From assembly GCA_037441385.1 (NCBI GenBank), contig JBBISH010000045.1, positions 1-42,987 on the forward strand: a DNA stretch of 42,987 nucleotides. The letters are read 5' to 3'. The stretch is from Myxococcales bacterium (GTDB lineage: Bacteria; Myxococcota_A; UBA9042). The translations under genes were made by a program, and so were the position numbers. Positions 3,692 to 33,022 of this stretch are shown here, one piece after another (positions within the stretch are counted from its first letter, which is position 1; every line of letters starts with the position of its first letter). A model generated the notes under the pieces. The model was given only the letters and a program-made list of their open reading frames with translations. It was not told where the DNA came from and made no database searches.

Positions 3692-3798
3692 TCGCCGCAG
3701 GTCAGCCAAGTGCCCTGCGGCAGGCTGCGCGATGCCTTGCCGGCCATCGGCTGACCAGGAATGGCAGCGAAGGCGCTTGGGTTCTGCTTGGCGGCCCG

Positions 3799-3828
3799 TT
3801 GGCAGGGCGGCGCGAGCGCCTGTATAGT
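3799..3828 (+). promoter_or_regulatory. Candidate sigma70 promoter for the 3891 gene
   Basis: TTGGCA-N18-TATAGT about 60 nt upstream of GGAG-ATG(3891). Confidence 0.4.
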
Positions 3829-3890
3829 GGCCTAGAGCCGGGCGGTCGCTACCCGTCACCGTACCAAGGCGCACAAACCAGCGGAGCGAC

Positions 3891-8183: not shown

Positions 8184-8207
8184 CCTGGCGCCCGACCAAG
8201 AGGAAAC

Positions 8208-9263: not shown

Positions 9264-9820
9264 TCATTGGCCTGACTGGACGCAACGCCTCGGGCAAGGG
9301 CACCGTCGCCGACTGGCTGGTGGCACAGGGCTTCTTCTACACATCGCTATCCGACGCGATTCGCACCTGGCTCACCGAACAGGGGCTGGAGACGTCGCGC
9401 GACAACCTGATCTACGGCGGGCGGACCCTGCGCAGCCAAGGCGGGCCGGGTGTGCTGGCTGTGCGGACCCTGCAGAGCCTGCCTGCGGGCCGCGACGTGG
9501 TGGTCGACAGCATCCGCACCCCGGCCGAGGTCGAGGCTCTGCGCACCCGGCCCGACTTTGTGCTGCTCGAGGTCTTTGCCGACGAGCGCCTGCGCTATGA
9601 CCGCCTCAAGGCCCGCGGCCGGGCGGGCGATGCCAAAGACTTTGATGAGTTCGTCCGTCATGAGCAGGCCGAGTTGACCTCGTCGGACTCGGCGGGCCAG
9701 CAGCTGGTCGCCACGGCGGACCTGGCCGACGTCCGCGTGGACAATGGCCGCCAGCTACAGGATTTGTCTGCTGATCTTCAAAGTCTGCTCGCGGGTTGGC
9801 GCACGCGCTGGCCGAGCTGA
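9260..9820 (+). CDS. P-loop nucleotide kinase (dephospho-CoA-kinase/UPF0200-like)
   Basis: MIIGLTGRNASGKGT Walker A; SLSDAIR; VVDSIRTPAEV; ATGA overlap with the ygfZ stop. Confidence 0.8.
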   Translation: MIIGLTGRNASGKGTVADWLVAQGFFYTSLSDAIRTWLTEQGLETSRDNLIYGGRTLRSQGGPGVLAVRTLQSLPAGRDVVVDSIRTPAEVEALRTRPDFVLLEVFADERLRYDRLKARGRAGDAKDFDEFVRHEQAELTSSDSAGQQLVATADLADVRVDNGRQLQDLSADLQSLLAGWRTRWPS

Positions 9821-9844
9821 CAACCAAGTACCTGGGGGATTTTC

Positions 9845-10759
9845 ATGGGCATGCTCGAAGGCAAGGTGGGCATCGTGACCGGCGCGGGCCGCGGCATCGG
9901 TGCCGCCATCGTCCAAGACCTAGCGGCCCAAGGTGCGGCCGTGGTGGTCAACGACCTGGGTGCGCGTTTGGACGGTGGGCAGACCGGCGAACACCCGGCG
10001 CACGACGTGGCACAGGCCATCCGCGCGGCCGGCGGCGAGGCCATCGCCAACGAGCAAAGCGTGGCCACCTTCGACGGCGCCCGCTCTATGGTGCGCGACG
10101 CCCTGGCCCGATGGGGCCGCATCGACTTTGTGGTGCACAACGCCGGCATCGTGCGCGACGTGATCTTCCACAAGATGAGCGAAGAGGATTTCGACAGCGT
10201 GATCGCGGTCCACCTCAAGGGCGGTTTCAACATCTTCCGCGCCTGCGCCGAGCCATTTCGCGAGCAAGGGAGCGGCGCGATGCTGGCCATGACCTCGACC
10301 TCGGGGCTCATCGGCAACGTGGGCCAAGCTAACTACGCGGCGGCCAAGCTGGGCCTAGTGGCGCTGACCCGCAGTATCGCCCTGGACATGCAGCGCTACG
10401 GTGTGCGCGCCAATGCCGTCGCTCCGTTTGCCTGGACCCGCATGACCTCGAGCATCCCCGCGCGCGATGCCGCCGGCGAGGCGCGCCTGCGGCGCCTGCA
10501 GCAGCTCGACCCAGCCCAAGTGGCGCCGCTGGTCACGCTTCTGGTCAGCGACCGCGCCAAGGACATCAATGGCCAGATTTTTGCGGTTCGCGGCACCGAG
10601 ATCACCCTATTCGATCCGCCCGAGCCCAGCCGCAGTCTGCACCGGCAAGGTGGTTGGACGGCCGAAGAGCTGGCTGATCAGTTGCCGCAGGCCTTCCGCG
10701 CCAGTTTTGCCCCGCTCCGGGTCACCGGCGACGTGTTCGGGTATGACCCACTCGTGTAG
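9845..10759 (+). CDS. SDR family oxidoreductase (3-hydroxyacyl-CoA dehydrogenase/MFE-2-like)
   Basis: TGAGRGIG, VVVNDLG, HNAGIVRD, GQANYAAAKLG (YxxxK). Confidence 0.92.
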   Translation: MGMLEGKVGIVTGAGRGIGAAIVQDLAAQGAAVVVNDLGARLDGGQTGEHPAHDVAQAIRAAGGEAIANEQSVATFDGARSMVRDALARWGRIDFVVHNAGIVRDVIFHKMSEEDFDSVIAVHLKGGFNIFRACAEPFREQGSGAMLAMTSTSGLIGNVGQANYAAAKLGLVALTRSIALDMQRYGVRANAVAPFAWTRMTSSIPARDAAGEARLRRLQQLDPAQVAPLVTLLVSDRAKDINGQIFAVRGTEITLFDPPEPSRSLHRQGGWTAEELADQLPQAFRASFAPLRVTGDVFGYDPLV

Positions 10760-10819
10760 AGACTCGACCCAACAAGAAGGCGCGGCCGCGGCGGGCCCAG
10801 ACTGCTCAAGAAATCGACC

Positions 10820-10977
10820 CGCTTCGATTCGTGTACTTGTACCGAATCTGGTCAGATCGGAATTCTGGGCATTTTCCGGGTCAGGGCCGGGGTCCCGGCC
10901 TGACTCTCGCTAGTTGCACAGCAGATCAGAGAAAAGATCAGAGAATCCGTGCGGGCGCGAATCAGGTGGGGTACGCA
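10820..10977. repeat. Dispersed intergenic repeat family A, copy 1 (MITE-like)
   Basis: 10887-10933 matches 33451-33497 at 42/47 nt; 10954-10977 matches 33506-33529 at 21/24 nt. Confidence 0.8.
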
Positions 10978-11190
10978 TTACTTGATCGCCCACCATGTGG
11001 CACGATTGGCTTCCGTGACCTTGCTGACCACACCTTCTGCGTGAAGGCGACTCAAGGCTTCCTGCAAATTCGCTTTGCTGAAAGCCTCATCGCACCACAC
11101 GTGGAAATCTGCAACCTGCAGTTCGCGATCTGGGTGTTGGCGCAGCGTGGCTAAGATGAACTCACGCGCAGTTCCTGTCTTCTTGGGCAT
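10978..11190 (-). CDS. 70-aa hypothetical protein, winged-helix-like
   Basis: MPKKTGTAREFILATLRQHPDRELQVADF...SKANLQEALSRLHAEGVVSKV...W; strong GAGGGAGAG RBS upstream of ATG 11190. Confidence 0.7.
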   Translation of the reverse strand: MPKKTGTAREFILATLRQHPDRELQVADFHVWCDEAFSKANLQEALSRLHAEGVVSKVTEANRATWWAIK

Positions 11191-11352
11191 GCTCTCCCTC
11201 CCCGCTCTCCGCAGCCAGGCACGCCGCGGATTCCCAGTGGGAGAGTGTAGCAGGATGACAGTGCGTAGGCCAAACGATCGTTTCAATTTCACGTCAGGTG
11301 CCGACTGCAACAAACAGAGTTCCCAAGATGGAATACAGGAAACACAACGGGT

Positions 11353-11811
11353 TCAGCGATTCGTCTCGAGCGGCAAGCCGGCGGCGCGCCAGCCGTCGAT
11401 GCCAGAAGGCATGATCCAGACATCGCGAAACTGGAGGGCGACCGCCACCCGGGCGGCCTTGTGGCACGCCAGTCAGTGTTCATTACTGCAGTAGAATACT
11501 AGTGTTGCGCTCTTGTCCGCGGGCAACCGATCCGCGGAAACTTCGCCAAGGGCGAGCGCGATCGCCCCCGGCACCCGTCCAAGTGCATAAGTTTCGGGGC
11601 GATTGTTGTCGAAGACGTGGATACTACGGCCGTCTTTCAACCATTGCCACAGCTGTTGGGGCGTAAGGGTGCCAAACTGATCGCGGTGCGCCTCGGCCGC
11701 GGCGGGCGGCGAGCTGCGGCCTGCCGCGCTGCCACAGCCGGCTGCGGTGGCGATCGTCGCCGCCACGACCCAGGTCGGCCGCAATGAAAATGTCTTGGGG
11801 CAAAGGTCCAT
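11353..11811 (-). CDS. Rhodanese-domain lipoprotein with an in-frame UGA (11473-11475), probably selenocysteine
   Basis: Lipobox ATAAGC; rhodanese motifs FDNNRPETYALGRVPGAI and LVFYC; after the TGA the frame continues LACHKAARVAVALQFRDVWIMPSGIDGWRAAGLPLE, which completes the rhodanese C-terminal signature; final stop at 11353-11355. Confidence 0.8.
11431..11472 (-). other. Candidate bacterial SECIS element
   Basis: Immediately 3' of the UGA: stem GGCCGCC/GGCGGUC with loop CGGGU starting 21 nt after the UGA, G at loop position 2; basal CUGG/CCAG pairing. Confidence 0.6.
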
Positions 11812-11976
11812 GGCATCGGTCCCGCACGGGCACCCGCCCGCATGGCAAGCATACGGGTTGAACCGCGAACTGCAATGGTGTCGCAGCCCGCGGGCAAATC
11901 GTGTAGGCTGCCACCCCAGGGCCGGCGGTCGGTGCCCACCTTGTGCACCTGGCCGCGTCGCCACGCGAGGAAGAAC

Positions 11977-13164
11977 ATGCTGGAGAACAAGATTCACGGA
12001 ATCGCGATCGCACCGCGGCGCGGGCTTGCGCGCGTGGCCTTGGCAGGACTGGCCACCGTGGCGCTGGGGGCGTGCGGCGCGACTGGCGGCGGTGGTGGTG
12101 GTGGCGGCGGCGTCATCGTCGGCGCGCCAGGGACGGCCTGCAACCCCGCCACCTACGGCGAGGTTTGCTTGGGCTCCGCCCGCATGGTGTGCGATCCCAA
12201 CCTGACCGTGTGGACGCAACTGGCCGTTTGTCCACAGGGCAGCTCGTGCGTGCTGACTTCGGTGACAACCACGCTTTGCACCGCGCCAACGACCGACACG
12301 ACCTCGTCATCGGGTAGCGACGCCGGCAGCACCGACACGGGCGCCAACAAGGCCGACACCACCAAGGACTCCGGCGGGAACACCCAACCCGATGTCCAGA
12401 CGACGGATATCAAGACGACCGATAGCGTGCCCACCGACACCATCGATCCGGGCGATGTGCCGCCGCAACCCACGGGGCCGATGACCATCTCCGAGATCCA
12501 GCAGGGCTCGGTCGGTTGTCCGTCGCCCGACCCGGCGGCTTGGAACCAACTGCCCGGGGTCACCATCACGGGCGCTACGGTGGTGACGTCGCAGCGCAAG
12601 CTCAACACCGACGGCTCGATGATCGGCGTGTACGTGCAGCAGGGATCCGGTCAGTGGTCTGGCCTGTTTGTGATCGGCGCCAAGGACGGCCCGCTGGGCG
12701 CGCTGAACTTGGGCGACGTCGTCAATCTGACCGGCGATGTCAAAGACTACTACTGCCTGACCGAGATGTACGTGACCGCTGCCACCACGACCGCGGTGGG
12801 ACAGTCGGCGCAGGCCACGACCGCTACCCTCTACCAGGTCGGCGACTCGGCTGGCCCCGCCAAGTCCGAGGCCTGGGAAGGCGCGCTCGTCGAGCTCCAC
12901 AACGTGGTGACCGGCGGCGACGCGCTGGGCACGGACGGCAAGCCGCACGGCGACTTCTGGGTCGGCATGACCAAGGGCGACACGGCACTGCGCGTAGGCG
13001 CCGGGTTCCCGGGCGTGTATACCAGCGTCAAACAAGCCGACGGTACGTTCTTGCCCAAGTACCCGGCCGGCACGATGCTGAGCACGGTGCGCGGAGTCAT
13101 CGACTACAATTTCGGGACGTTCCGCCTCCTGCTGACTGAAGATCCGCTGCTCGGCGCACCCTAG
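11977..13164 (+). CDS. Lipoprotein with poly-Gly stretch, small Cys module, Thr/Asp-rich linker and C-terminal OB-fold-like domains (similar to those of extracellular nucleases)
   Basis: GAGGAAG RBS; lipobox VALGAC; TISEIQQG..VTITGATV..GVYVQQG..WSGLFV..GDVVNLTGDVKDYY; EAWEGALVEL. Confidence 0.75.
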   Translation: MLENKIHGIAIAPRRGLARVALAGLATVALGACGATGGGGGGGGGVIVGAPGTACNPATYGEVCLGSARMVCDPNLTVWTQLAVCPQGSSCVLTSVTTTLCTAPTTDTTSSSGSDAGSTDTGANKADTTKDSGGNTQPDVQTTDIKTTDSVPTDTIDPGDVPPQPTGPMTISEIQQGSVGCPSPDPAAWNQLPGVTITGATVVTSQRKLNTDGSMIGVYVQQGSGQWSGLFVIGAKDGPLGALNLGDVVNLTGDVKDYYCLTEMYVTAATTTAVGQSAQATTATLYQVGDSAGPAKSEAWEGALVELHNVVTGGDALGTDGKPHGDFWVGMTKGDTALRVGAGFPGVYTSVKQADGTFLPKYPAGTMLSTVRGVIDYNFGTFRLLLTEDPLLGAP

Positions 13165-13221
13165 AGACCTGACCAACTACTGCACACTCGTTCAGTTCTT
13201 GGATGTTCTGGTCAGGTCTCT
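13161..13221. repeat. About 60-bp palindromic element (family B), overlapping the upstream TAG stop
   Basis: Perfect 13-bp inverted repeat AGAGACCTGACCA (13163-13175) / TGGTCAGGTCTCT (13209-13221); aligns end to end with 34829-34887. Confidence 0.75.
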
Positions 13222-18196: not shown

Positions 18197-19225
18197 ATGA
18201 CCCGCAAGCGCGTCCTCCTCATCCACACCGGCGGCACCCTGGGCATGGGCGAGCCGGCCCACCGCCGCCTGGACCTGGAGCCAGCCGAGCACCTGCAGCG
18301 GATGCTGGAGCGGGTGCCCGAGCTGAGCGAGATCGCCGACTGCGACCTGATCGCGCCGTGGAACCTGGACTCGTCGGATGTGGGCCCCAGCCACTGGCAG
18401 CAATTGGCGCAGGCGGTGGTCCAGCACGGCGGCGCCGGTCAGCCTGGCGGCTACGCCGGCATCGTCATCATCCACGGCACCGACACCCTGGCCTATGCAG
18501 CGTCGGCGCTGGCGTTCATGCTGCGCAACCTGGATCGGCCAGTTATTTTCACGGGTTCACAACGGCCGCTGCAGGCCTGGCGCACCGATGCCCGCGCCAA
18601 CCTGGCCGCGGCGGTCGAGGCGGCGACGCTGGACCTGCCCGAAGTGGCGATCGTTTTTGGCGATCGCGTACTGCGCGGCTGCCGCGCCACCAAGGTGGAC
18701 GCCAGCGACTACCTCGCGTTCGACACGCCCAACCTGTCCCCGCTGGGTCGGATCGGTGTGGGAATTGACCTGGATCCGGTGCTGATCCGCCGGCCAAGCG
18801 GCCCGTTTGCCTTGGCCGAAGACCTGAATCGACAGGTGTTGGGGGTCACCGTTTTCCCCGGCTTCGATCCCGCGCTGCTCGACGGGGTAGCCGACTCTGG
18901 CGCCGGGATGCGTGTCAAAGCATTGATCGTGCGGGCTTTTGGCGCGGGCAACGTGCCCATCGTGGGCGACTACAGCTTGCTGCCGGCGATCGAGCGCATG
19001 TCGGCGCGCGGCGTCGCGGTGCTGATCGCCACTCAATGCTTGCGGGGCAGCGCCCAGCTGGATCTGTACGCGGCCGGCCGTGCCCTGCGCGACGCGGGCG
19101 CCATCTCGGCAGGCGACATGAGCTTTGAGGCCGCGTCGACCAAGGCGATGTGGGCCTTGGGGCACCCCGAGCGTAGCGTGGCCGAGTGGTTCGCCCTGAA
19201 CCTGGCCGGAGAAGTCAGTCTTTAG
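18197..19225 (+). CDS. ansA: L-asparaginase, type I (cytoplasmic)
   Basis: IHTGGTLGM, LDSSD, HGTDTLAY, FTGSQRP, GAGN, TQC; no signal peptide. Confidence 0.9.
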   Translation: MTRKRVLLIHTGGTLGMGEPAHRRLDLEPAEHLQRMLERVPELSEIADCDLIAPWNLDSSDVGPSHWQQLAQAVVQHGGAGQPGGYAGIVIIHGTDTLAYAASALAFMLRNLDRPVIFTGSQRPLQAWRTDARANLAAAVEAATLDLPEVAIVFGDRVLRGCRATKVDASDYLAFDTPNLSPLGRIGVGIDLDPVLIRRPSGPFALAEDLNRQVLGVTVFPGFDPALLDGVADSGAGMRVKALIVRAFGAGNVPIVGDYSLLPAIERMSARGVAVLIATQCLRGSAQLDLYAAGRALRDAGAISAGDMSFEAASTKAMWALGHPERSVAEWFALNLAGEVSL

Positions 19226-19393
19226 CTTGCGCGGGCGCGCGGCTATACTGCGCCGATGATGTCCTATGAACGCCGCCTGATTCACGCTTGTTCGGCCTGC
19301 CCAACCCGCTATGCAACCGGCGAGAATCAGGCCGGGACCCCGGTTCGGCCCCAGAGAATTGCCAGGGTTCTCGAACCGATTCAGAGGGAATTC

Positions 19394-20827
19394 GTGTTCA
19401 TCCCTTCATCCTTGGTGCTCCGCACCCTTCGGATCGGCCTAGCGATCGTGGTGGGACTGATGTGCCTGGCGTGCCAGCGCATTGCCGAAGACGACAGCCC
19501 CGACACGTTGACCGGCATCAAGATCGACAGCTGGACCACGGCCGACATTGGCAAGATCGATGGCAGCGGGGCCGATTCCAAGACATCCGCCACCAAAGAC
19601 GCCGCTCCTCCACCGCCCGAAAAGTGCGGCAACGACTTGGACGACGACGGCGACGGCTACGTCGACGAGGCCAAGTGCTACCCCGAACCCAATTTGCGAC
19701 CCGGGGCCGAGTGGCAAGACCTGGGAGTCGTCGACATCAGCGCAGGAAAAGGCAAAGCGCCGCTGCGGTCCTTTGGCGCGGCCCTGAAGAACGAGGGCAT
19801 GGTGGTGGTGGCCGAAGACGTGATGGTGCGGCCAGTCGGTACTTACGCGCAGTATGTGTGGGCCGAGCAGTTGGTCTCGCCCGCTGGCGTGGTGGCCCTG
19901 GCCCCCGGCGAATGGCCCTCTTCGCCCAACCGGGCCATGGTCGGCGTAACCGCGAGCACTCTACAAGTCGGTATGAGTCCAAGCCTTTCGGTCGTTGCTG
20001 GACCGTGGAAGATCGCCTTCACCCACGCCCACTCGCTGCCTACCGCCTGGGACGGCACGACCACGGCGGCCAAACTGCATCTGGGCGTCTACGCGCGACC
20101 CGAGATTCCGGCGAATCAGCCAGCTTTCCTGGACTTGGATGTGTTCTGCGTGGGCGGCGTGCCGATGCCCTGTGCCCAGCTCGCCACCAGCCCGCAGTGG
20201 GCGATCATGGCCGCCCGCATCAATGCCATTTGGAAGCCGGCTTCGGTTCAGCTGGGTACCGTGACCTTTACCGACTTGGATGGCGACGACGGAGTCAAAT
20301 ACAAGTACTTGGACAACGTGCTAGAGGGTCTGCCGCAAAACGAGCTGTTCGGCGTGTATCAGGCCACCGCCAAGCGGCGACCGCAGTCCACGGCCGCCAC
20401 ACTGGTCCTGGCCGCGGCGCTGAACGACAACGGGTTGACCGCGGCGGCGGGTCTATCGGCGCTTGCGGGGGTGCCGGGTTGGCCGGGGCGGCGCAGTTCT
20501 GGGCTCGCGGTCGCCATCGATCCCGACTCGTGGCAGAAGGTGGTGGCCCAGGGCCCCAATGCGCCGTATGCGGGCGACGTGTGGGGCGTGGTCATTGCGC
20601 ACGAAATCGGGCACTTCCTGGGCCTGTGGCACACCGACGAGAAGCTGAGTTCCCTCCACGACCCGATCGACGACACGCCGCCCTGCAACCTAAACGAAAG
20701 CACCGAGAAGACCAAGGCGACCTGCCCGGTGCAGGCCAAGTACTTGATGTTCTGGGCGCCCGCCGGCACCAGCGTCACCCTGGGGCAAGCCAAGGTGGTG
20801 CGCCTGAGCCCGGCGCTGCGGCCGTAG
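19394..20827 (+). CDS. Lipoprotein zinc metalloprotease (metzincin)
   Basis: GTG start after AGAGGG; lipobox MCLAC; EKCGNDLDDDGDGYVDE metal-binding repeat; HEIGHFLGLWH zinc motif; YLMFW Met-turn; TATACT -10 at 19244-19249. Confidence 0.8.
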   Translation: MFIPSSLVLRTLRIGLAIVVGLMCLACQRIAEDDSPDTLTGIKIDSWTTADIGKIDGSGADSKTSATKDAAPPPPEKCGNDLDDDGDGYVDEAKCYPEPNLRPGAEWQDLGVVDISAGKGKAPLRSFGAALKNEGMVVVAEDVMVRPVGTYAQYVWAEQLVSPAGVVALAPGEWPSSPNRAMVGVTASTLQVGMSPSLSVVAGPWKIAFTHAHSLPTAWDGTTTAAKLHLGVYARPEIPANQPAFLDLDVFCVGGVPMPCAQLATSPQWAIMAARINAIWKPASVQLGTVTFTDLDGDDGVKYKYLDNVLEGLPQNELFGVYQATAKRRPQSTAATLVLAAALNDNGLTAAAGLSALAGVPGWPGRRSSGLAVAIDPDSWQKVVAQGPNAPYAGDVWGVVIAHEIGHFLGLWHTDEKLSSLHDPIDDTPPCNLNESTEKTKATCPVQAKYLMFWAPAGTSVTLGQAKVVRLSPALRP

Positions 20828-22003: not shown

Positions 22004-23239
22004 ATGCGCCTGACCGCCCAAGCCCGCGTCTTTCTCCAAGCCGGCGAGGAAGTGTTCCGCAAGCCCAGTTTCTGGGACAAGTTCAAGGGTTTCTTGGGTT
22101 CCGACGTGGACCTGCGCACCGGCGAGTTGAGCTTGGCCGGCAATGCCCTGGCCGTGTGCGAGCAGGTGCAGCAGGCCCTGGTAGCGGCCAAGATCACCAA
22201 CGCGGTGAGCATGGGCGTCGATCGCGACATCCTGTTCCAGGACCTGGAAGACCGCGACAACGACGCCGACATGCTTTTGCGGGCGGCGCGGGCCTCTGCC
22301 GCGCGGTTCCAGCAGCCTTTCTCGGTGATTCGCATCGTGTTCGAGCACGAAAAGGCCGGCCTGCACAGCCTGATCGAGGCGACCATCCGCAGCAGCTACA
22401 AGCCCACCGAGCCAGCGGTCATCCTGGCCATCGGCAGCCGCATCAGCGCGCTGCGCCCGCAAGACGGCGAAGACATCGAGACGGCCAAAGACCGCATCGG
22501 CAAAGCCTTGGGTGATCCGCATCTGGTCCCCACCAGCAAGGCCGTGCTCGACGAGCTGCTCGCGCGCATCGAGACCGCGCTCAGCCGCGTGTTTGCCGGC
22601 GCCCGCATCGAGGTGGATCACGCCGACGTGCAGGTGGTGCGCCCCAGCCGCGACGACGTGCAAAACATGGCTGGGTCGTACGACCAGCGCGACGCCAGCC
22701 TGCGCTCTGCGCCCAACTACTATCCGGGCTTCCGCTACGGCGCCTACTATGACCCGTGGGGAACTTACTATTACGATCCTATGGATACGTTTGTGAGCTT
22801 GATGGTCTTGGATGCGATCGCCTCTCCAAGGCACCATTGGGGCTATGGTCCCGGCTATTTGGGCACCAGCTGGGGCAGCTATGGCGCGCCGGTGACGATC
22901 GTCAACTACAACGGCCACCCATTTGGCACCGCCGACCACTATAGCAGCTTCAGCAATCAAATCGGCGACGTAGGCAGCGTTGTCAACCAAGACTTCTCGT
23001 CGGCCAGCTTCAGCGACGGCTGGCTGTCCAGCTACGACGCCAGCAATTCCAGCTTTGACTCCGGCGGCTCGGGCGGCAGCTGGGACTGCGCCGGTGGCTC
23101 CAGCGGCAGCAGCGACTGCGCGTCGTCGGACTGCAGCTTTGACTGCAGCTCGGACTGCAGCTACGACTGCGCGTCCAGCGACTGCTCGTGGGACTGCTCG
23201 TCGGATTGCAGCAGCGATTGTGGTGGCTCCGATTGGTAG
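22004..23239 (+). CDS. Hypothetical protein with a Tyr/Gly-rich segment and a C-terminal tail of ten Asp-Cys units; candidate radical SAM substrate
   Basis: AGGAG RBS; tail WDCAGGSSGSSDCASSDCSFDCSSDCSYDCASSDCSWDCSSDCSSDCGGSDW. Confidence 0.85.
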   Translation: MRLTAQARVFLQAGEEVFRKPSFWDKFKGFLGSDVDLRTGELSLAGNALAVCEQVQQALVAAKITNAVSMGVDRDILFQDLEDRDNDADMLLRAARASAARFQQPFSVIRIVFEHEKAGLHSLIEATIRSSYKPTEPAVILAIGSRISALRPQDGEDIETAKDRIGKALGDPHLVPTSKAVLDELLARIETALSRVFAGARIEVDHADVQVVRPSRDDVQNMAGSYDQRDASLRSAPNYYPGFRYGAYYDPWGTYYYDPMDTFVSLMVLDAIASPRHHWGYGPGYLGTSWGSYGAPVTIVNYNGHPFGTADHYSSFSNQIGDVGSVVNQDFSSASFSDGWLSSYDASNSSFDSGGSGGSWDCAGGSSGSSDCASSDCSFDCSSDCSYDCASSDCSWDCSSDCSSDCGGSDW

Positions 23240-24753
23240 CTCGCGTTCCTTCAGCCAATTCAAGCTCTTCGGCCCTGTCTCAGCCAGCCCGCCTCGGCTT
23301 GCCCCCCCGCACGCTGTGGCGGGACTTGCCGGTGCGCCGCGCGCCGCGCCTGTATACGTCGTGGCTGGACGGGCGACCTTTTGCCCATGATCCAGATGGT
23401 TACGACGCGTTGGCGGTGCTGACCCCGCCCGCTTGGCAGCTGTGCCTGGCCGCCGATGGCCGGCCGCTGGGCCAAGTGTTGGACGAGTTGGCGCCAGGCG
23501 GCGATCACGAAGGCTATCTGCGCGAGCTGCCTCTGCTTTGGCGCAACGGCTTTGTGCGAACGCCTGGGATCCGTCCGCGCACGCCGCAGGCCACCAGCGA
23601 GCGCGTCTTCAACACTTGGATCCACCTGACCAACGCCTGCAATTTGGCGTGCCCGTACTGCTACATCCACAAAGACAAGCGGCACATGGCCGACCATGTG
23701 GTGAGCGATGTGCTAGCGAGCGTGGCGGCCACGGCGCGTTCGGGCGAGGTCGATCGCATCCACGTGCGCTATGCAGGCGGCGAACCGATGCTGCGCTTTG
23801 CGGCCATGCAGGCCTTTCACCAGCAAGCGACCGAGGTTTGCGCGCAGCACGGGGTCAAGTTTTCGGCCGCGGTGCTGACCAATGGCGCAGTGGTGCCGGC
23901 GGGCGCGATCGCCTGGCTCAAGGCCAATCAAGTTTCGGTGTCGATGTCGATCGACGGCGTGGGCGCGACGCAGGACCTGATGCGGCCGGTGGTGGGCGGC
24001 GGCTCGTCCTTTGCGCGGGTGCAGCACGGCTTAGACCAGTACCAGCAGGCGGGCATCCAGCCCTACATGCTCGTCACGGTGGGGGCAAGCAACTTGGACG
24101 GTCTGCCCGACCTGACCGAGTTTTTGCTGAGTCGCGGCCTTGGCTTCCGCTATAGTCTGGTCCGCGATCTCGAGTGGGGCGGCAGCGTCATGGACGACCG
24201 CCACGGCCCCGAGCACGCCGATGGCCGACCGACCGCGCCCACCGACATCTTGAGCGGACCGCCGCTGTACCGCCTGCAAGAGGTGCTGGGGCGCTGCTAT
24301 CGGCGCATCGAGGAGCATGTCCGCCACAGTGACGGCAAGGATCCCAACTGGTTCCGCCGCACGCACCGCTTTTGCGACCTGGACCTGTGGCGGCCGCTGC
24401 AGCATGCCTGTGGCGCTGGGCGGACTTATGTGGCCATCGGCGAGGATGGCCAGGTCAGCCCGTGCCAGGCGGCGTTGCACCACGCCGGCACGCAGCCGGT
24501 CAGGGGGGCCTCGCTGCTGCAATTGGCCAAGGGCCAGACGCAGTTCCCGCAGTTCACGCGCGGCGTGGGCAACCCTGAGTGCGCGCGCTGCCGGCACAAG
24601 CCATCGTGTGCGGGCGGCTGTCCGCTGCAGCTGTACCGCCGCGAGGGCCATGTCGACGGTCGGTCCCCGTACTGCCAGGTCTACAAAGCTGTGATCCCGC
24701 AGATGGTGCGCATCGCGGCCCTAGAGCTGATCTTGGCGCAGACGCGGAGCTGA
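23233..24753 (+). CDS. Radical SAM/SPASM-domain maturase with an RRE/PqqD-like N-terminal domain
   Basis: CNLACPYC (CxxxCxxC), YAGGEP, LTNG, MSIDG; SPASM CGAG..GQVSPC..CARC..SCAGGCP..YC; start uncertain (TTG 23233 overlapping the upstream stop, or 23299/23332). Confidence 0.92.
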   Translation: MVARVPSANSSSSALSQPARLGLPPRTLWRDLPVRRAPRLYTSWLDGRPFAHDPDGYDALAVLTPPAWQLCLAADGRPLGQVLDELAPGGDHEGYLRELPLLWRNGFVRTPGIRPRTPQATSERVFNTWIHLTNACNLACPYCYIHKDKRHMADHVVSDVLASVAATARSGEVDRIHVRYAGGEPMLRFAAMQAFHQQATEVCAQHGVKFSAAVLTNGAVVPAGAIAWLKANQVSVSMSIDGVGATQDLMRPVVGGGSSFARVQHGLDQYQQAGIQPYMLVTVGASNLDGLPDLTEFLLSRGLGFRYSLVRDLEWGGSVMDDRHGPEHADGRPTAPTDILSGPPLYRLQEVLGRCYRRIEEHVRHSDGKDPNWFRRTHRFCDLDLWRPLQHACGAGRTYVAIGEDGQVSPCQAALHHAGTQPVRGASLLQLAKGQTQFPQFTRGVGNPECARCRHKPSCAGGCPLQLYRREGHVDGRSPYCQVYKAVIPQMVRIAALELILAQTRS

Positions 24754-24756
24754 CGG

Positions 24757-25827
24757 ATGGACCAGATCGTCCTGCACAATCCCGTGCAAACCTGGCTGGT
24801 GGCCGTGCTGGTGGTGGCGCTGGGCTGGCTGCTGGGCCGCCTGACGCGCTTTGTGCTCAGCCGCTGGGTGGTCAAGTTGACTGCGGCGACGGGCACCAAC
24901 CTGGACGACAAGATCATCCAACGCTCGGCGCGGCCGGTGGGCCTGATCGTCACGTTTGCCTCGGTGCACGTGGCCCTGGCGATGTTGGTGGTGCCCGACC
25001 AAAGCCGCCACTTGATCGAAGGCACGGTGGTCGCGGCCATCGCCATCACCGCCGCCGTCATCGTGATGCGCAGTGTGGACGCGGTGTTCGAGGAAGTGCT
25101 GAACCCTTGGGCCGCACGACAAAACCCGCCGGTCAACCCGCTCGTGCTCGATGTCGCGCGCATCGCCATCAAGGTCGTGTGCGGCTCGCTGGCGACCGTC
25201 ACGGTGATGCAGCGCGCCGGCTTTGACGTGTGGAGTGTGATCACCGGCCTGGGTATCGGCGGCGTGGCAGTGGCGCTGGCCGCGCAGCAAACGCTGGGCA
25301 ACCTGTTCGGCTCGGTGCAAGTGATGACCGACCGGCCGTTCGCCGTGGGCGACTTCGTGCAGATCGACCGCTATTCGGGACGGGTGCAGAGCGTGGGGCT
25401 GCGATCGACGCGGCTCAAGCGCGCCTCGGGCGAGATCGTGGTCATCCCCAACAAGCACGTGGCCGAGACGACCATCGAGAATTTCATGGCCGATCAGGGC
25501 CAAGTCCGTGAATTCACACTCGCGCTCACCTACGAGACCGCGGCCGAGCGCGTAGAAGAGGCTTGCGAGCGCGTCCGGCAGATCCTGGCGCAGCAGCCCG
25601 GCATCCACGGCGAGGTGATGGTGCACTTTTGGGCCTTTGACGAGTCGGCCCTGCGCCTGCGCGTCATCTACCGCGTGCCGCTGGCCGACCAGTTCGCCGA
25701 CATCGCCCACGCGGTCAACATGGCGATCTTGAAGGATTTCGCCGCGGCGGGTCTGGGCTTTGCCTACCCAGTACGTCGAGTCATCGTCGACGGTCCGGCG
25801 AGTGCGGCCGACGCGGTCGGCTCATGA
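24757..25827 (+). CDS. MscS-family mechanosensitive channel
   Basis: GLGIGGVAVALAAQQTLGNLFGS, DRPFAVGDFVQI, GRVQSVGLRSTRL, IPNK, FAYP. Confidence 0.93.
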   Translation: MDQIVLHNPVQTWLVAVLVVALGWLLGRLTRFVLSRWVVKLTAATGTNLDDKIIQRSARPVGLIVTFASVHVALAMLVVPDQSRHLIEGTVVAAIAITAAVIVMRSVDAVFEEVLNPWAARQNPPVNPLVLDVARIAIKVVCGSLATVTVMQRAGFDVWSVITGLGIGGVAVALAAQQTLGNLFGSVQVMTDRPFAVGDFVQIDRYSGRVQSVGLRSTRLKRASGEIVVIPNKHVAETTIENFMADQGQVREFTLALTYETAAERVEEACERVRQILAQQPGIHGEVMVHFWAFDESALRLRVIYRVPLADQFADIAHAVNMAILKDFAAAGLGFAYPVRRVIVDGPASAADAVGS

Positions 25828-26145
25828 TTTCTTGAAGCAATCGTGGCACTGCTCGGTCCACGGCGACTCGTCCAGCGCCAAGTCGGGCAGCGGCTGGCCA
25901 CAGTCCTGGCACTTACCGAATTCGGCTGTGCCCAAGCGCCGTTGCGCGCGGATGATCTGGTCCAGAAAGCGCCGCAGCCGCTCGTGGGGCTTCTCGCCAG
26001 GCTTCTCTTCGTTTGGCAATTTCATGGTGGCGAGCGTCACGTTCATGCCCGCCAGCACTTCCGTCAGCTTCTGATTGATTTCCATACCCTTGCGACCCAG
26101 TGCCGTGCGCAGCCGGGCCAGGCGGGCGGGATCCATCTCGCTCAT
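25822..26145 (-). CDS. DksA/TraR-like C4 zinc-finger protein
   Basis: Helical N-terminal part followed by FGKCQDCGQPLP..LDESPWTEQCHDC. Confidence 0.8.
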   Translation of the reverse strand: MSEMDPARLARLRTALGRKGMEINQKLTEVLAGMNVTLATMKLPNEEKPGEKPHERLRRFLDQIIRAQRRLGTAEFGKCQDCGQPLPDLALDESPWTEQCHDCFKKS

Positions 26146-26247
26146 GTTGCAGTCCAGACTGCGCGTTTGCCGCGCCAACCCCGCAAGACTGCCCAAGTGC
26201 GACCGGCGTGACAACCCACGCGGTCAAGGCAGTTGCCGCGCGCTGCC

Positions 26248-29147: not shown

Positions 29148-29753
29148 CTAGTTTGGGTTGAGCGCCGCCACCACCGCGTCGACCAGCACTGCGTCGTCCG
29201 GCAGTGCGGCTTTGCCGTCTTGGGCGCGCGGCGGGATCACCCGGCAGCCCAGGTTGGCCAGCTTGGCCAGCGACTCGCGCAAGATGGCGTTGACCATCGA
29301 ACCGTGCATGGTGGGCGCGAACAAGACCTGCGTGCGACCCTGCTCGAGCAAGCCCAGAGCGCTGGCCAAGGCCGTGGTGACCGCGTTGTCCGCCACACCG
29401 GCCGCAACCTTGTTGAGGGTCGAGTAGGTAGCCGGCGCCACCAGGTAGGCGTCCAGGGCCGATTCCACGTGCTGAGCGCGGCCATCCAAGGCGGTCACCA
29501 GCGGGTGCAGGCTGGTCCACTCCAGGGCGTCTTTGGCCACGAACTGTTGGGCGGCCGGCGTCAGGAACACGAACACTTCGGCCCCGGCGCGCCGCAGTTC
29601 GCGGACCAGCCCCGGTGCGCGGTAGGCCGCGATGCCGCCCGTGACCAACAACCCGATGTGCTTGCCCTGCAACCGGCTCGACGTCGCCGCCACGGCCCGG
29701 TCACCGGGCAGCAACTCGCCCAAATTCCAGCGAAAATCATCTGACGTGGCCAT
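29148..29753 (-). CDS. coaC: Stand-alone HFCD flavoprotein, phosphopantothenoylcysteine decarboxylase (CoaC)-like
   Basis: LQGKHIGLLVTGGIAAYRAP, LVAPATYSTLNKVAAGVADN, APTMHGSM; no CoaB domain. Confidence 0.75.
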   Translation of the reverse strand: MATSDDFRWNLGELLPGDRAVAATSSRLQGKHIGLLVTGGIAAYRAPGLVRELRRAGAEVFVFLTPAAQQFVAKDALEWTSLHPLVTALDGRAQHVESALDAYLVAPATYSTLNKVAAGVADNAVTTALASALGLLEQGRTQVLFAPTMHGSMVNAILRESLAKLANLGCRVIPPRAQDGKAALPDDAVLVDAVVAALNPN

Positions 29754-29784
29754 GAGGTCCCTACACGGGTGCGGCTCGCCCGGA

Positions 29785-32700
29785 CTAGGGCGCCACCGCG
29801 CACCAGCCCACGCCCTGGGTATAGCCCACGGCCAGGTCAATGTTGTCGATCATCACGCCCATGCCCTGGTTGCCGACCTGATCGGTCGTATCAAACTTGA
29901 ACGTGACCAAGTACTTGGCCCCTGGGCCCAACTTGGTCAGCGAGTCGGCCATGTTGATCTTGATCGTCTGCCATTGGTTGATCGGCACCGGCTGGGTCAC
30001 TTCCTTTTGCCACACCGTCCAGGGATCGCCGATCGGTCCGCCGATCTTGGGCGAGAATTGCTGCACGCTGACGCTGAGCACGTCGTAGGTGCCGCCGCCT
30101 TCCGTAGCCATGTACAGGTCAAAACTTAGGTTGGCCCACGGAAAATCTTGCGGGACCGTGGCCAGGGGCAGCGCAAACGTGCCCGACGACTTGCCGAAGT
30201 CGAAGTTCCACACGCTCGCGTCGCCGTAATACAGCACGTACTTGCTGGGCTGCGCGTCGCAGGCTGGGCCGTTGGGCGGGCACGGCGCCGGGCGCGCGAC
30301 CAACTGCCAGCCCTGGAATGGCCCGGAGCTGTTCGCGACGTTGATGTGCTGCAACTGCTGATCCTCAAAACCATTCAAGTACATGTTCTGATCGCAGCAG
30401 GTGGTATCCAGTTTGGGCACACACTGATTGGACGCCAAATCGCAAGAGCTGGGGCTCATGCACGACCAGCCAAAACCGCACTCGGCCGTGGACAGGCAGC
30501 AGTTGTCCTTCTTGACCACGGAGCAGGCGTTGATGGCCTCGTTGCAGACCTGGGCGTCACACGGTCCCAGCTTGATGGGCTTGCACGGCGGCGGCGCTCC
30601 ACCTACGCACTGGCCCGTGGACGAGCAGGTGTCGCCGGTGGTGCAGAACTTTCCGTCTTCGCAAGCCTCGCCCGCGGCCTTGGGCTTGACGATGCAGCCT
30701 TGCGCCTCGTCGCACACCAAAGGCGCGCAGGGATTGCCGCTGTCGCCGCACTGCTGCGGGGTCGCGGTGCAGTTGCCGGATCCGTCGCACTGGTCGCCCA
30801 CCGTGCAGGTCTTGCCGTCGTCGCAGACCACCCCCTTGCCCAGGGGCGTGACTTGGCACGCGTAGCTCGCGGGGCCAAATGACTTGCACACCACCAGATT
30901 GCAGGCGCTAGGCGGGCAGTTGGCCGCCGCGCCGGGTACGCACTTGCCGCCCTTGCAGACGTCGCTGACGGTGCAGCCGTTGCTATCGGCGTCGCAGGCG
31001 GTGCCGTCGGCCTTGCTGACTGCTTCACACTTGCCGGTGCTGGGATTGCACTGGGCGTTGTTGCAGGCGTCGGCGCTGGCGCTGCAGTCCACCGGCTTGC
31101 CGCCCACGCAGGCTCCGGCCTGGCAGGTACCCGTGCCGGCCTGGATGCACTTGTTGCCCACGTCGCAGGTCTGGGTGGTCGGCGCCGAGGCGTAGCCGCA
31201 CTTGCCGGCCGAGCAAGTATCCACGGTGCAGGGGTTCTTGTCGTCGCAGTCGGCATTGGCGGCGCATTGGCACTTGTTCTCGGACTTGCAGACGCCACCC
31301 ACGCACGTGTCGGTGGTGCAGCTGTTGCCGTCGTCGCACTTGCCGGTGTCGTCGCCCACCGAAGAGCAGCCCTTGGTGGCCACGCAACTATCCTTGGTGC
31401 AAGGGTTCTTGTCGTCGCAACCCGTGTCGTCGGTCTGGTGCGTGCACTCGCCGCTGGCCTCGTCGCAGGCGTCGTAGGTGCACGGAATGCCGTCGTCGCA
31501 GCTCTTCTTGGCGCCCAGGCACACGCCCGCGGCTGAGCAGAGGTCGCCGGTCGTGCAGTTCAGACCGTCGCTGCACTCGCCCGTGGTGACGTTGTGCAAG
31601 CATCCGGCCTTGGGCTCACAACTGTCCAGCGTGCAAGCATTTTTGTCGTCGCAAGCCACGGCGGTGCCAGTGCATTTGCCGGCGACACAGGAGGTCGAAG
31701 TGGTGCAGGCGTCGCCGTCTTCGCAAGTCTTGCCTTCGTTTTGGGCTTTGACCAAGCACTCGCCGGTGGCCTCGTCGCACGCGCTGATGGCGCAGATGTC
31801 GCTCAGAATGGGGCACTTGACCACGGAATCCAGCTGCAGCTCGCACGACTTGGTGGTCAGGTTGCAGGTGAACTTGCCGCCGCACTTGGTGTTGTTGGCG
31901 GCGCAGTCGGTGTCGGCCTTGCAGCCGCACGACGCCTTGCCGGTGCATTTGCCGTCTTTGCACACGTCGCCCGTGGTGCAGGGGTTGTTGTCGTCGCAGC
32001 TGTTGAGCTCGTTGCCGGTGGCGGTGCAGCCCTCGGCCAAGTCGCACTCGATCTTGACGCACGGATCGTTGTCGACGCAAAGCTTGTTCAGCGGCGTGAA
32101 CTTGCAGCCCGTGGCCTTGTCGCACGTGTCTTCGGTGCAGGCGATGCCGTCGTTGCAGACCAGCGCGGTGCCTTTGCACTGGCCGGCTTGGCAGCTGTCG
32201 TTCTCGGTGCACTTGGTGCCGTCGTCGCAGGTGACCCCAACGTCGGTGATCGGGTCGTGCTTGACCTGCTTGCCCTGATCGCAATAGTCCTGGGTGCACG
32301 GGTTGCCGTCGCTGTAGTCGGCCGCCGTGGCCGTGATACAAATTCCTGCCTTGCAGATCTTGCCGCACGCAGTCAAGCCGCAGATCGTCAGGTCCCCGCC
32401 CGATTGCTTGTCGGGTTTGGGCGTCTTGACGCACTGCGCTTTGTCGTCGCAGAACGCCTGCTCGCATTCACCCGCCTCGTCCAGCGGGTTGACGCACGGC
32501 TCGCCCTTGCTGCGCGGCTTGAGCACGCACTTGCTGGTCTGCAGGTCGCACTTGGGCACGTTGCAGGGCGTCTTGCCCTTCATCGAGGCGCAGTCAAAGT
32601 CGACCGTGCACTCGGCCGCCACGGTGTCCGGCGTGGTGGTGTCCGCGCTGACGTCGGTGCCACCGCCGATCGTGTCGGGGCCCACGTCGTCGCTCGCGGC

Positions 32701-32877
32701 GGGCTCTTGGATCGCAACTTGGCCGCAGCTGGCCAGGGCGCCGGCCAAAAAGAGGGCCACCAGGCCCGCCGGCAAGTGCGCGATCCGACGCAATGGGCCG
32801 GGCAAGGGACTCTTTGGGGAACCCGGTCCACCCTGCGTGTCCTGGACTTGGGCGCGGCCAACAACGCTCGCCAACAT
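29785..32877 (-). CDS. Large Cys-rich repeat lipoprotein with a C-terminal beta-sandwich-like domain
   Basis: Lipobox ALASC; many CDDGNxCTxDxC / CDDKNPCT units (Dictyostelium CTDC/myxobacterial-type repeats); C-terminal ..GVMIDNIDL; GGGGGAG RBS. Confidence 0.88.
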   Translation of the reverse strand: MLASVVGRAQVQDTQGGPGSPKSPLPGPLRRIAHLPAGLVALFLAGALASCGQVAIQEPAASDDVGPDTIGGGTDVSADTTTPDTVAAECTVDFDCASMKGKTPCNVPKCDLQTSKCVLKPRSKGEPCVNPLDEAGECEQAFCDDKAQCVKTPKPDKQSGGDLTICGLTACGKICKAGICITATAADYSDGNPCTQDYCDQGKQVKHDPITDVGVTCDDGTKCTENDSCQAGQCKGTALVCNDGIACTEDTCDKATGCKFTPLNKLCVDNDPCVKIECDLAEGCTATGNELNSCDDNNPCTTGDVCKDGKCTGKASCGCKADTDCAANNTKCGGKFTCNLTTKSCELQLDSVVKCPILSDICAISACDEATGECLVKAQNEGKTCEDGDACTTSTSCVAGKCTGTAVACDDKNACTLDSCEPKAGCLHNVTTGECSDGLNCTTGDLCSAAGVCLGAKKSCDDGIPCTYDACDEASGECTHQTDDTGCDDKNPCTKDSCVATKGCSSVGDDTGKCDDGNSCTTDTCVGGVCKSENKCQCAANADCDDKNPCTVDTCSAGKCGYASAPTTQTCDVGNKCIQAGTGTCQAGACVGGKPVDCSASADACNNAQCNPSTGKCEAVSKADGTACDADSNGCTVSDVCKGGKCVPGAAANCPPSACNLVVCKSFGPASYACQVTPLGKGVVCDDGKTCTVGDQCDGSGNCTATPQQCGDSGNPCAPLVCDEAQGCIVKPKAAGEACEDGKFCTTGDTCSSTGQCVGGAPPPCKPIKLGPCDAQVCNEAINACSVVKKDNCCLSTAECGFGWSCMSPSSCDLASNQCVPKLDTTCCDQNMYLNGFEDQQLQHINVANSSGPFQGWQLVARPAPCPPNGPACDAQPSKYVLYYGDASVWNFDFGKSSGTFALPLATVPQDFPWANLSFDLYMATEGGGTYDVLSVSVQQFSPKIGGPIGDPWTVWQKEVTQPVPINQWQTIKINMADSLTKLGPGAKYLVTFKFDTTDQVGNQGMGVMIDNIDLAVGYTQGVGWCAVAP

Positions 32878-33022
32878 GGAACTCCCCCAAAAACCGTGCG
32901 CGATGTGCGACCCAGACAGTCTAGCCCCTCGCGGCGCGCCGCGTCAAAGCATACGGGCACCTACATAGGGCACACTGGGTCGCCGCAGACCGCTGGGGCG
33001 ACGCGGAACGCGAAAACGCGGC

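Follow-up and report, generated by a model that had tools for sequence, protein, structure and literature searches.

The Asp-Cys-tailed protein

The window analysed here, a stretch of 42,987 nucleotides from a Myxococcales bacterium (contig JBBISH010000045.1, assembly GCA_037441385.1), contains two neighbouring genes on the same strand that are the subject of this report: one encodes a 411-residue protein with a tail of Asp-Cys (DC) units, and the other encodes a radical S-adenosylmethionine (rSAM) enzyme with a SPASM region and an N-terminal domain resembling the recognition elements (RREs) of ribosomally synthesised and post-translationally modified peptide (RiPP) pathways. An earlier note on this DNA had proposed the pair as a new system in which the enzyme crosslinks the tail. 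The coordinates of these and the surrounding features are collected in Table 1.

Translation of nucleotides 22004-23236 yields 411 residues with 11 cysteines, one at residue 52 and ten within residues 362-406. All ten tail cysteines are directly preceded by aspartate; the next aspartate lies at +3 after six of them (CX2D: CSFD, CSSD, CSYD, CSWD, CSSD, CSSD), at +4 after three (CX3D: CASSD, CASSD, CGGSD) and ten residues on from the first. The ten units, their six CX2D and three CX3D spacings and the interval (23081-23236) are exactly those counted in the earlier note. A six-frame scan of the same genome (6.6 Mb, 221 contigs) found no other open frame with more than five DC dipeptides per 60 residues, and the frames that reach five resemble, by eye, Cys-rich repeat proteins of another kind. 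Elsewhere in the genome, an open frame near codon 15200 of frame 0 on the minus strand of contig C24 ends in a dense Cys/Gly/Asp/Glu run (CGSGGGCCGDDGECEDGCDGDCDGDCDCEGGCDGECDC...), and a DCASDCASDC stretch occurs at C81:24205-24234; neither is near the window.

The DC-tail protein has no signal peptide or transmembrane segment recognisable by eye, and matched no Pfam or NCBIfam family at E<=0.01. A word-indexed search returned 49 homologous clusters, all of them unnamed or 'hypothetical', and the named sources are metagenome-assembled genomes of Myxococcales. Aligned with one another, 34 homologs show good conservation over the N-terminal ~345 residues and a tail of variable length, with 8 to 12 units. 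The D-C columns, invariant or nearly so, are the most conserved part of the tail; the serine after cysteine never varies in two repeat columns and hardly varies in a third. Just ahead of the tail, the homologs share a conserved stretch, D-F-x-x-A-x-W-D-D...Y-D, which is a candidate recognition element for the rSAM enzyme.

In the AlphaFold2 model, residues 41-330 mostly have pLDDT values (from the predicted local distance difference test) of 84-98 per 10-residue block, with dips at 11-40 and 241-250, and tail residues 350-411 fall to about 30, the mark of disorder. As modelled, the protein is a confidently folded domain of about 345 residues followed by a disordered tail, which bears out the earlier suggestion of a large folded protein, and not a short peptide, as the candidate substrate. 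The folded part is called the carrier domain below. A Foldseek search of the PDB with this domain gave no match at E<=0.001. Among 48,161 chains compared by VIA-align, the highest score belonged to the N-terminal domain of human spermine synthase (Z 9.1, root mean square deviation (rmsd) 2.3, 95 residues), followed by unrelated proteins at Z 6-7; the modelled likeness is a common alpha/beta arrangement that carries no functional assignment, and it was rejected as a clue.

The radical SAM enzyme

The start of the enzyme gene is uncertain, and its four in-frame candidates are GTG 23188 (overlapping the preceding gene by 52 nt), TTG 23233 (a 7-nt overlap), TTG 23299 (a 59-nt gap) and GTG 23332 (a 92-nt gap). 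The third is the start of the database protein; conservation among orthologs begins near it, and the first ten residues of the corresponding 484-residue form are modelled at pLDDT 92. Since conservation sets in at about 23299, the genes are at most 59 nt apart and may overlap. Of the earlier statement that the second gene abuts or overlaps the stop codon of the first, the close spacing on the same strand therefore stands, and the overlap is reduced to a possibility that depends on the start codon.

The rSAM core is recognised by Pfam Radical_SAM at 49 bits, and Pfam SPASM matches weakly (16.6 bits against a cut-off of 21.5). The expected CX3CX2C motif is followed by eight C-terminal cysteines, seven of them invariant and one nearly invariant among 40 orthologs, in a region that aligns with the SPASM regions of CteB and anSME, so that the earlier description of a CxxxCxxC radical SAM enzyme with a full SPASM domain is upheld. 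Although 71 rSAM/SPASM families of NCBIfam match, all do so far below their cut-offs: the best row is PapB (NF047865, 110.9 bits against 340), followed by DynA, a nif11-type family and QhpD (TIGR03906, 95.7 against 453), and the top rows also include SCIFF maturases (TIGR03974, 81.5 against 425); TIGR04463 scores 75.8 against 525.

A profile of the 40 orthologs, compared with the PDB, found CteB (5wgg) to be the best solved chain (E 4.3e-34), with an alignment beginning at CteB residue 24 that matches the RRE-like domain to CteB residues 24 to ~100. The AlphaFold2 model of the enzyme (mean pLDDT 90.1) begins with strands at residues 11-14, 19-23, 26-30 and 38-40, and continues with helices at 43-51, 57-64, 70-74 and 77-82, all at pLDDT 85-97. 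VIA-align also ranks CteB first (Z 29.9, rmsd 5.3 over 406 residues, 19% identity), superposing model residues 16-477 on chain residues 2-450. The cores of anSME and ChlB score nearly as high (Z 29.1-29.7) and align only from residue 102; anSME has no RRE domain. The strands-then-helices pattern of the model and its homology to the N-terminal domain of CteB, by profile and by superposition, agree with the RRE/PqqD-like region of about 90 residues suspected earlier. Judged by its predicted architecture, this enzyme is a maturase of the RRE-rSAM-SPASM type, of the kind that forms thioethers. A complex prediction for the enzyme with residues 316-411 of the DC-tail protein scored 0.00, which gives no verdict and is counted neither way.

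Co-occurrence of the two genes

A protein of the DC type was found in 27 genomes, comprising 19 of 41 relatives and eight more from a phylum-wide sample of 401 genomes. An ortholog of the rSAM enzyme is present in 26 of the 27: 20 of them encode it immediately after the DC gene on the same strand, three at a distance of 4.4-5.4 kb, and three fragmented assemblies on another contig. The exception is G007 (81% complete), where a contig end truncates the DC gene itself. In the other direction, a DC-type protein is lacking from five of the 31 genomes in which an rSAM ortholog occurs. The two are thus not linked symmetrically: a DC tail that lacks the enzyme is practically never encountered, and the enzyme can dispense with the DC tail. 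The linkage of homologous rSAM enzymes to DC-tail proteins expected in the earlier note is borne out for the tail (26 of 27 genomes, 20 with adjacent genes) and only partly for the enzyme.

A superfamily of carrier proteins with different tails

Searching across the phylum revealed distant homologs of the carrier domain in other families, at 25-33% identity. An alignment of 20 domains defines a superfamily with invariant residues G32, D73, D80, D87, F106, R146, E156, R164, P214 and D250, and the corresponding profile matches 459 representative clusters at E<=0.001, 343 of them at E<=1e-10, in a collection of 1.84 billion proteins. Tails were classified in the 108 matches of at least 300 residues among the best 150 superfamily matches. 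Three or more cysteines were found in the last 60 residues of 20 of the 108; six of these tails are of the D-C type and the other fourteen are mostly built of S-S-C-G or S-S-S-C, often ending in GGCGGG. One or two cysteines were found in 21 of the 108 and none in 67, some of which carry Gly/Asp/aromatic repeats (GGDF, GGDY); eleven Cys-free tails end in W or WD.

The genes around these distant homologs were compared in ten loci from the phylum sample and nine new loci from GTDB species genomes, located with a closer subset of the divergent carrier alignment; five duplicates were counted once, and two loci too short to judge (L046, 3.5 kb; L050, 1.7 kb) were left out. The context was scored with Pfam and with hidden Markov models (HMMs) over all six-frame open reading frames (ORFs) of at least 80 residues in every locus. 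All nine evaluable homologs outside the DC clade that have Ser/Gly/Cys-repeat tails are accompanied by a Cys-modifying RiPP-type enzyme in the fetched flanks. For seven of the nine (L034, L036, L041, L045, L047, L048, L051), the enzyme is a multinuclear non-heme iron-dependent oxidase (MNIO, PF05114) encoded just upstream on the same strand; two of these MNIOs were scored against NCBIfam, and both are closest to BufB, at 176-177 bits against a cut-off of 310. For the other two, L035 (6741-9272) and L055 (3010-5754), it is a fused double rSAM/SPASM protein of 844-915 residues encoded directly downstream of the carrier. The N-terminal half of the L035 protein, the only one of the two that was compared, scores 481.5 bits, above the 350-bit cut-off for the SbtM 'thio(seleno)oxazole modification' family, a name for which an open-access literature search returned nothing relevant. 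The carrier homologs of L035 and L055 have tails that end SSCGSSCGGGCGGGY, and no MNIO was found in their fetched flanks.

By comparison, none of the eight homologs with at most one tail cysteine has an MNIO or rSAM match in the fetched flanks (L037-L040, L042, L043, L049, L056), which are short on one side in L037 and L038. Four of these Cys-poor loci have the same N-terminal V-D-L-P-S signature as the Cys-repeat set. Owing to the relatedness of these genomes, the nine-to-zero split overstates the independence of the observations. Within this limit, the pattern of tails and enzymes supports the tail as a substrate of post-translational modification. In L049, an IS605 OrfB/TnpB-like gene (3613-4563, minus strand) occupies the usual place of the MNIO gene, and the carrier keeps a single cysteine at its extreme C-terminus; this locus may be a decayed system.

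The upstream membrane protein and the rest of the locus

Directly upstream of the DC gene is a gene for a 340-residue protein, here called up340, with a signal or transmembrane segment, an extracytoplasmic domain, one transmembrane segment and a cytoplasmic helical end. An HMM of up340 finds homologs directly upstream of the carrier in every locus of family f1, the family of the window, and also upstream of the carrier in L034, L036, L041, L045, L046, L047, L049 and L051, where the usual order is MNIO, membrane protein, carrier. Since up340 homologs accompany the carrier from locus to locus, the two make up a conserved pair, to which the Cys-modifying enzyme is added as a third, variable component. 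Up340 matched no Pfam or NCBIfam family at E<=0.01. A likeness to TPM domains is offered as a lead only: its basis is an Atlas score of 0.85 together with two Pfam rows below threshold (E 0.03 and 0.045) among 11 homologs.

These comparisons allow a broader proposal, put forward tentatively and at slightly less than even odds: that one soluble carrier and its dedicated membrane protein form a Myxococcota-wide platform for 'protein-tail RiPPs', in which the repeat has been coupled independently to three unrelated types of Cys-modifying enzyme, namely RRE-rSAM-SPASM enzymes on D-C-S-x, BufB-like MNIO oxidases on S-S-C-G and the SbtM-type double rSAM protein. The product would be membrane-associated, its tail chemically rewritten, probably metal-binding and at no stage set free as a peptide.

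Downstream of the enzyme gene, the gene for an MscS-type channel is kept in most family-f1 loci, including loci without a DC protein. A consensus scan placed no terminator-like site between the DC gene, the rSAM gene and mscS, and the first good one at 25806.

Table 1. Features of the window around the DC-tail protein and the rSAM enzyme.
Feature	Coordinates	Strand	Basis and remarks
Asparaginase gene	18197-19225	+	
M12/reprolysin-like metalloprotease, lipoprotein-like N-terminus	19256-20827	+	Pfam Reprolysin_4, 24.2 bits; synteny kept within the family only
Up340 membrane protein, 340 aa	20927-21949	+	Directly upstream of the carrier gene; without Pfam family
DC-tail protein, 411 aa	22004-23239	+	ORF; without Pfam or NCBIfam family
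Folded N-terminal carrier domain, residues 1-345	22004-23038	+	AlphaFold2 model; homology across the superfamily
Predicted disordered tail, residues 360-411, ten Asp-Cys units, repeat D-C-S-x (= C-S-x-D)	23081-23236	+	Sequence and pLDDT
RRE-radical SAM-SPASM enzyme	23299-24753	+	Start uncertain: in-frame candidates 23188, 23233, 23299, 23332
RRE-like N-terminal domain, residues 11-88 of the 484-aa form	23329-23562	+	Model and CteB alignment
CX3CX2C radical SAM cluster motif (C114, C118, C121)	23638-23661	+	Invariant in 40 orthologs
SPASM region (C359, C371, C389, C428, C431, C437, C441, C459)	24373-24675	+	Seven invariant, one nearly invariant
MscS-type mechanosensitive channel	24757-25827	+	Pfam MS_channel domains; starts 3 nt after the rSAM stop codon

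Elsewhere, the window is of a housekeeping kind (serine hydroxymethyltransferase, S21, ClpS/ClpA, acyl-CoA carboxylase), and no other RiPP-type gene, peptidase-containing transporter or qhp gene was found within it. An HFCD-family flavoprotein (29151-29849) was considered as a LanD-like Cys decarboxylase and set aside: the NCBIfam families that it matches best, CoaBC and CoaC, are matched below their cut-offs, and because it lies on the other strand, beyond clpA, it is treated as a housekeeping protein. Very large proteins are encoded at 29788-32943 on the minus strand (1052 residues with Dictyostelium-type CTDC Cys repeats) and at 3828-8180 on the plus strand (1451 residues with five TIG/IPT domains). 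A small ORF at 25825-26223 on the minus strand, convergent with the end of mscS, has a C4 zinc-finger end and a weak DksA/TraR-like match (26.5 bits, below cut-off); it also adjoins the MscS gene in L022, a locus of genus g5.

A proposed crosslinked tail and its alternatives

The best overall explanation, to which a probability of roughly 0.55 is assigned, is that the 411-residue protein is a cytosolic carrier whose tail is crosslinked by the rSAM enzyme. Its parts differ in strength. The comparative sequence evidence makes it quite probable that the tail is a substrate of the enzyme. By analogy with characterised enzymes, a thioether is the favoured product, with somewhat less assurance, and aspartate is a tentative choice of acceptor, a little short of an even chance. 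A metal or redox role of the modified tail is speculative.

If this explanation holds, the enzyme would dock on the carrier protein through its N-terminal RRE and proceed along the disordered tail, where it would take hydrogen from an acceptor carbon and link that carbon to a Cys sulfur held at an auxiliary cluster. Both CteB and PapB abstract hydrogen from the acceptor carbon, with the Cys sulfur at the auxiliary cluster. The acceptor would most probably be the side-chain carbon of the aspartate 3-4 residues downstream, giving a string of small intramolecular rings, each with a mass change of -2 Da. Because no dedicated protease or exporter is evident, the modified tail would probably stay on the protein and act jointly with up340, perhaps in the handling of metals or in redox processes. 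A metal role is guessed at because the MNIO cousins resemble bufferin maturases and because one rSAM ortholog lies in a Cus-like operon, as described below.

A Cys-to-Asp thioether is the first choice because the CX2D and CX3D spacings of the tail match the motifs of PapB and CrpC; nothing in the data discriminates it from other thioethers. The same substrate might instead undergo another reaction, such as formation of a sactionine (Cys sulfur to alpha carbon), a thioether to the serine or to the x residue of the repeat, or some other radical reaction on Cys, Ser or Asp. Consistent with this are the different chemistries of the best NCBIfam rows (PapB, DynA, YhhB, anSME, SCIFF), every one of them below cut-off, the superposition of anSME and ChlB on the enzyme core as good as that of CteB, and the conserved serines of the repeat. 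Such a reaction is nevertheless unlikely, given that the aspartates before each cysteine and 3-4 residues after it are the most conserved feature of the tail and that CX2-3D matches the motifs crosslinked by PapB (PMC9413430) and CrpC (PMC13692751), as described in the available parts of those papers. The aromatic crosslinks that the earlier note had held out as an alternative were rejected as a general mechanism: the repeat units of at least three aligned homologs out of 34 (P0045, P0048, P0049) are free of aromatic residues, which speaks against cyclophane-type links at the x positions.

Several observations weigh against a crosslinked tail. Because the enzyme misses all NCBIfam cut-offs, no family assignment reveals which reaction it carries out. 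Tail cysteines are absent from many superfamily members, including the 67 of the census described above, so the carrier functions without a modification of this kind. The genomes compared are related, and their counts are therefore not independent. In genus g9 (three genomes: L020:7844-11117 of genome G018 and the matching loci L058 and L060), the pair is split by 4.4-5.4 kb; in L020, a DeaD-type RNA helicase and an Old Yellow Enzyme-type flavin mononucleotide oxidoreductase are encoded between the DC gene and the rSAM gene. In genus g5 (G014, G024, G169), the carrier gene is gone, and a shortened upstream gene (204 residues) ends 12 nt before the rSAM gene, which is under purifying selection (dN/dS, the ratio of nonsynonymous to synonymous substitution rates, of 0.105 at a dS of 0.38, two genes compared). 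The ortholog of G147 (46% identity) follows a gene of the GCS2 glutamate-cysteine ligase family 2, and that of G257 (54% identity, with a shortened N-terminal domain) follows an operon for OEP, a CusB-like protein and resistance-nodulation-division (RND) efflux, similar to CusCBA. Orthologs kept without a DC protein indicate that the enzyme has a function independent of it.

The persistence of the enzyme in genus g5 could mean that its main substrate lies elsewhere, whether a small peptide, the upstream membrane protein or a protein of another locus, and that the DC protein is an accessory such as a scaffold, a chaperone or a donor of sulfur or iron. The up340 gene is the most constant neighbour of the module, and in g5 the rSAM gene under selection directly follows its shortened form. 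Against this, the surroundings of the rSAM gene in the g5 loci and in G147 showed no Cys-rich or repeat candidate, the upstream protein has few cysteines, and the MNIO and SbtM cousins show the same logic of carrier and Cys tail with enzymes known to act on peptide cysteines. The 20-domain profile found no carrier anywhere in the g5 genomes; a hidden DC-repeat substrate was sought with the pattern DCxxDCxxDC, which had no matches in G014 and G024, and with DCxxDC, which in G014, G024 and G169 occurred at the level of a reversed-pattern control and was never clustered. A main substrate elsewhere is considered improbable.

The G257 operon bears on another alternative, in which the tail is not modified by the rSAM enzyme at all: it would serve as made, as an acidic Cys/Asp/Ser tail that binds metal or a cluster, and the enzyme would be nearby through a shared regulon or through the metal or Fe-S economy of the cell. 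In L067 (G257:C13:9000-23000, ~5090-13215, minus strand), the CusB-like protein has a His-rich N-terminus, and the rSAM gene is followed by a gene for a 305-residue Met/His-rich lipoprotein with a Cys-rich C-terminal part; this context hints at a metal connection of the enzyme family. Each of Asp, Cys and Ser can serve as a metal ligand, comparable acidic Gly-rich tails occur on Cys-free members of the superfamily, and rSAM orthologs persist without the DC protein. The alternative is nonetheless rather unlikely, somewhat more so than a different reaction on the tail, though less so than a substrate elsewhere: 26 of the 27 DC-protein genomes hold the enzyme, its RRE domain points to a peptide or protein substrate, and three unrelated types of Cys-modifying enzyme beside Cys-bearing tails, with none beside Cys-poor ones, are hard to explain unless the tails are substrates. 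Metal binding by a modified tail would fit the crosslinked carrier equally well.

Significance and comparison with known systems

If the tail is crosslinked, RiPP-type radical chemistry would act on an ordinary cytosolic bacterial protein, invisible to genome miners that look for short ORFs, and the pair would be a bacterial counterpart to a single archaeal example published in 2026. Carriers with differing Cys repeats, each beside a different enzyme, offer a natural comparison set for substrate recognition and for the function of modified Cys tails, for which copper or other metal handling is the obvious guess, from the bufferin-like MNIOs and the Cus-like setting seen in one relative. With its ten minimal C-S-x-D units, the repeat would further be a compact substrate for enzymology and peptide stapling. 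The carrier family is undescribed in the open-access full text that was searched; supplements of the cited papers may list such proteins. The superfamily, the association of tails with enzymes and the rSAM orthologs without a DC protein go beyond the earlier note.

The archaeal example is the CrpA/CrpC pair of the methanogen Methanococcus voltae (TIGR04463; Dieter et al. 2026), and it makes the earlier claim of a new system an overstatement: the available part of that paper, published in September 2026, describes a SPASM rSAM enzyme with a predicted RRE that installs ranthionine crosslinks on a Cys-rich protein, including at CxxD (PMC13692751). In the same account, the cysteines of CrpA lie in C-terminal repeats that include C-X-X-D/Q, and sites such as CAVD and PCAGD receive ranthionine-type crosslinks of -2 Da each; the N-terminus of CrpA is leader-like and 47 residues long, an N-terminal domain contributes to engagement, and a 17-residue motif, repeated ten times, is predicted to form a beta-helix (PMC13692751). 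The window likewise encodes a protein with C-terminal Cys repeats (411 residues, ten tail cysteines) beside a SPASM rSAM enzyme with an RRE. Its enzyme, at 75.8 bits against the TIGR04463 cut-off of 525, belongs to another family than CrpC, and, as far as CrpA can be compared by description, its protein differs in having a folded domain of ~345 residues from an unrelated, unannotated superfamily, a 4-5-residue D-C-S-x repeat that is predicted to be disordered, and a bacterial host.

The comparison with CteB, the SCIFF maturase (PDB 5wgg and 5why), rests on the three-domain layout of RRE, rSAM core and SPASM in a thioether-forming enzyme; the TIGR03974 cut-off is missed, and identity is 19%. 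SCIFF precursors are peptides of ~45 residues. QhpD/QhpC, of quinohemoprotein amine dehydrogenase maturation, is a precedent for a protein substrate, in that a SPASM rSAM enzyme makes Cys-to-Asp/Glu thioethers in a protein subunit; QhpD is the fourth-best NCBIfam row, below its cut-off, and the window has no qhp genes. From a classical RiPP precursor, the DC-tail protein differs in its 411 residues, its folded domain and the absence of a peptidase-containing transporter from the window.

PapB, which acts on PapA in the freyrasin pathway (Eastman et al. 2022), crosslinks Cys to Asp in six motifs of the form Cys-X3-Asp/Glu and accepts CXnD with n=0-6, according to the available text (PMC9413430). 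The enzyme of the window has PapB as its best NCBIfam row, shares the CX3CX2C motif and the SPASM cysteines, and adjoins a protein with repeated Cys-Xn-Asp, its putative substrate. It falls below the NF047865 cut-off and is thus no member of the PapB family, and its repeat is carried by a 411-residue protein, in contrast to the short precursor peptide PapA. An Asp-Cys motif in up to six repeats beside an rSAM gene is described for rSAM 'Cluster 59' (Kostenko et al. 2022), for which the authors, in the part of the paper available, could not predict the modification (PMC9062424). By its description there, Cluster 59 consists of three genes, for a recombinase, an rSAM enzyme and a peptide; the window has a 411-residue protein instead of the peptide, and no recombinase.

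The closest parallel to the superfamily as a whole is provided by the TIGR04222 membrane proteins (Antoine et al. 2025), which the available text presents as full-size proteins with unstructured, Ser/Gly-rich C-terminal tails that contain cysteines, proposed in silico as MNIO substrates; the tails are often, though not always, encoded beside a Cys-modifying enzyme, and members without the cysteines lack the enzyme (PMC12452194). The carrier differs in being soluble, without an NCBIfam match and paired with a separate membrane protein, and the enzyme of the DC clade is an rSAM-SPASM protein, not an MNIO. The carrier superfamily nevertheless shows the same pattern of tail cysteines and enzymes as the TIGR04222 proteins.

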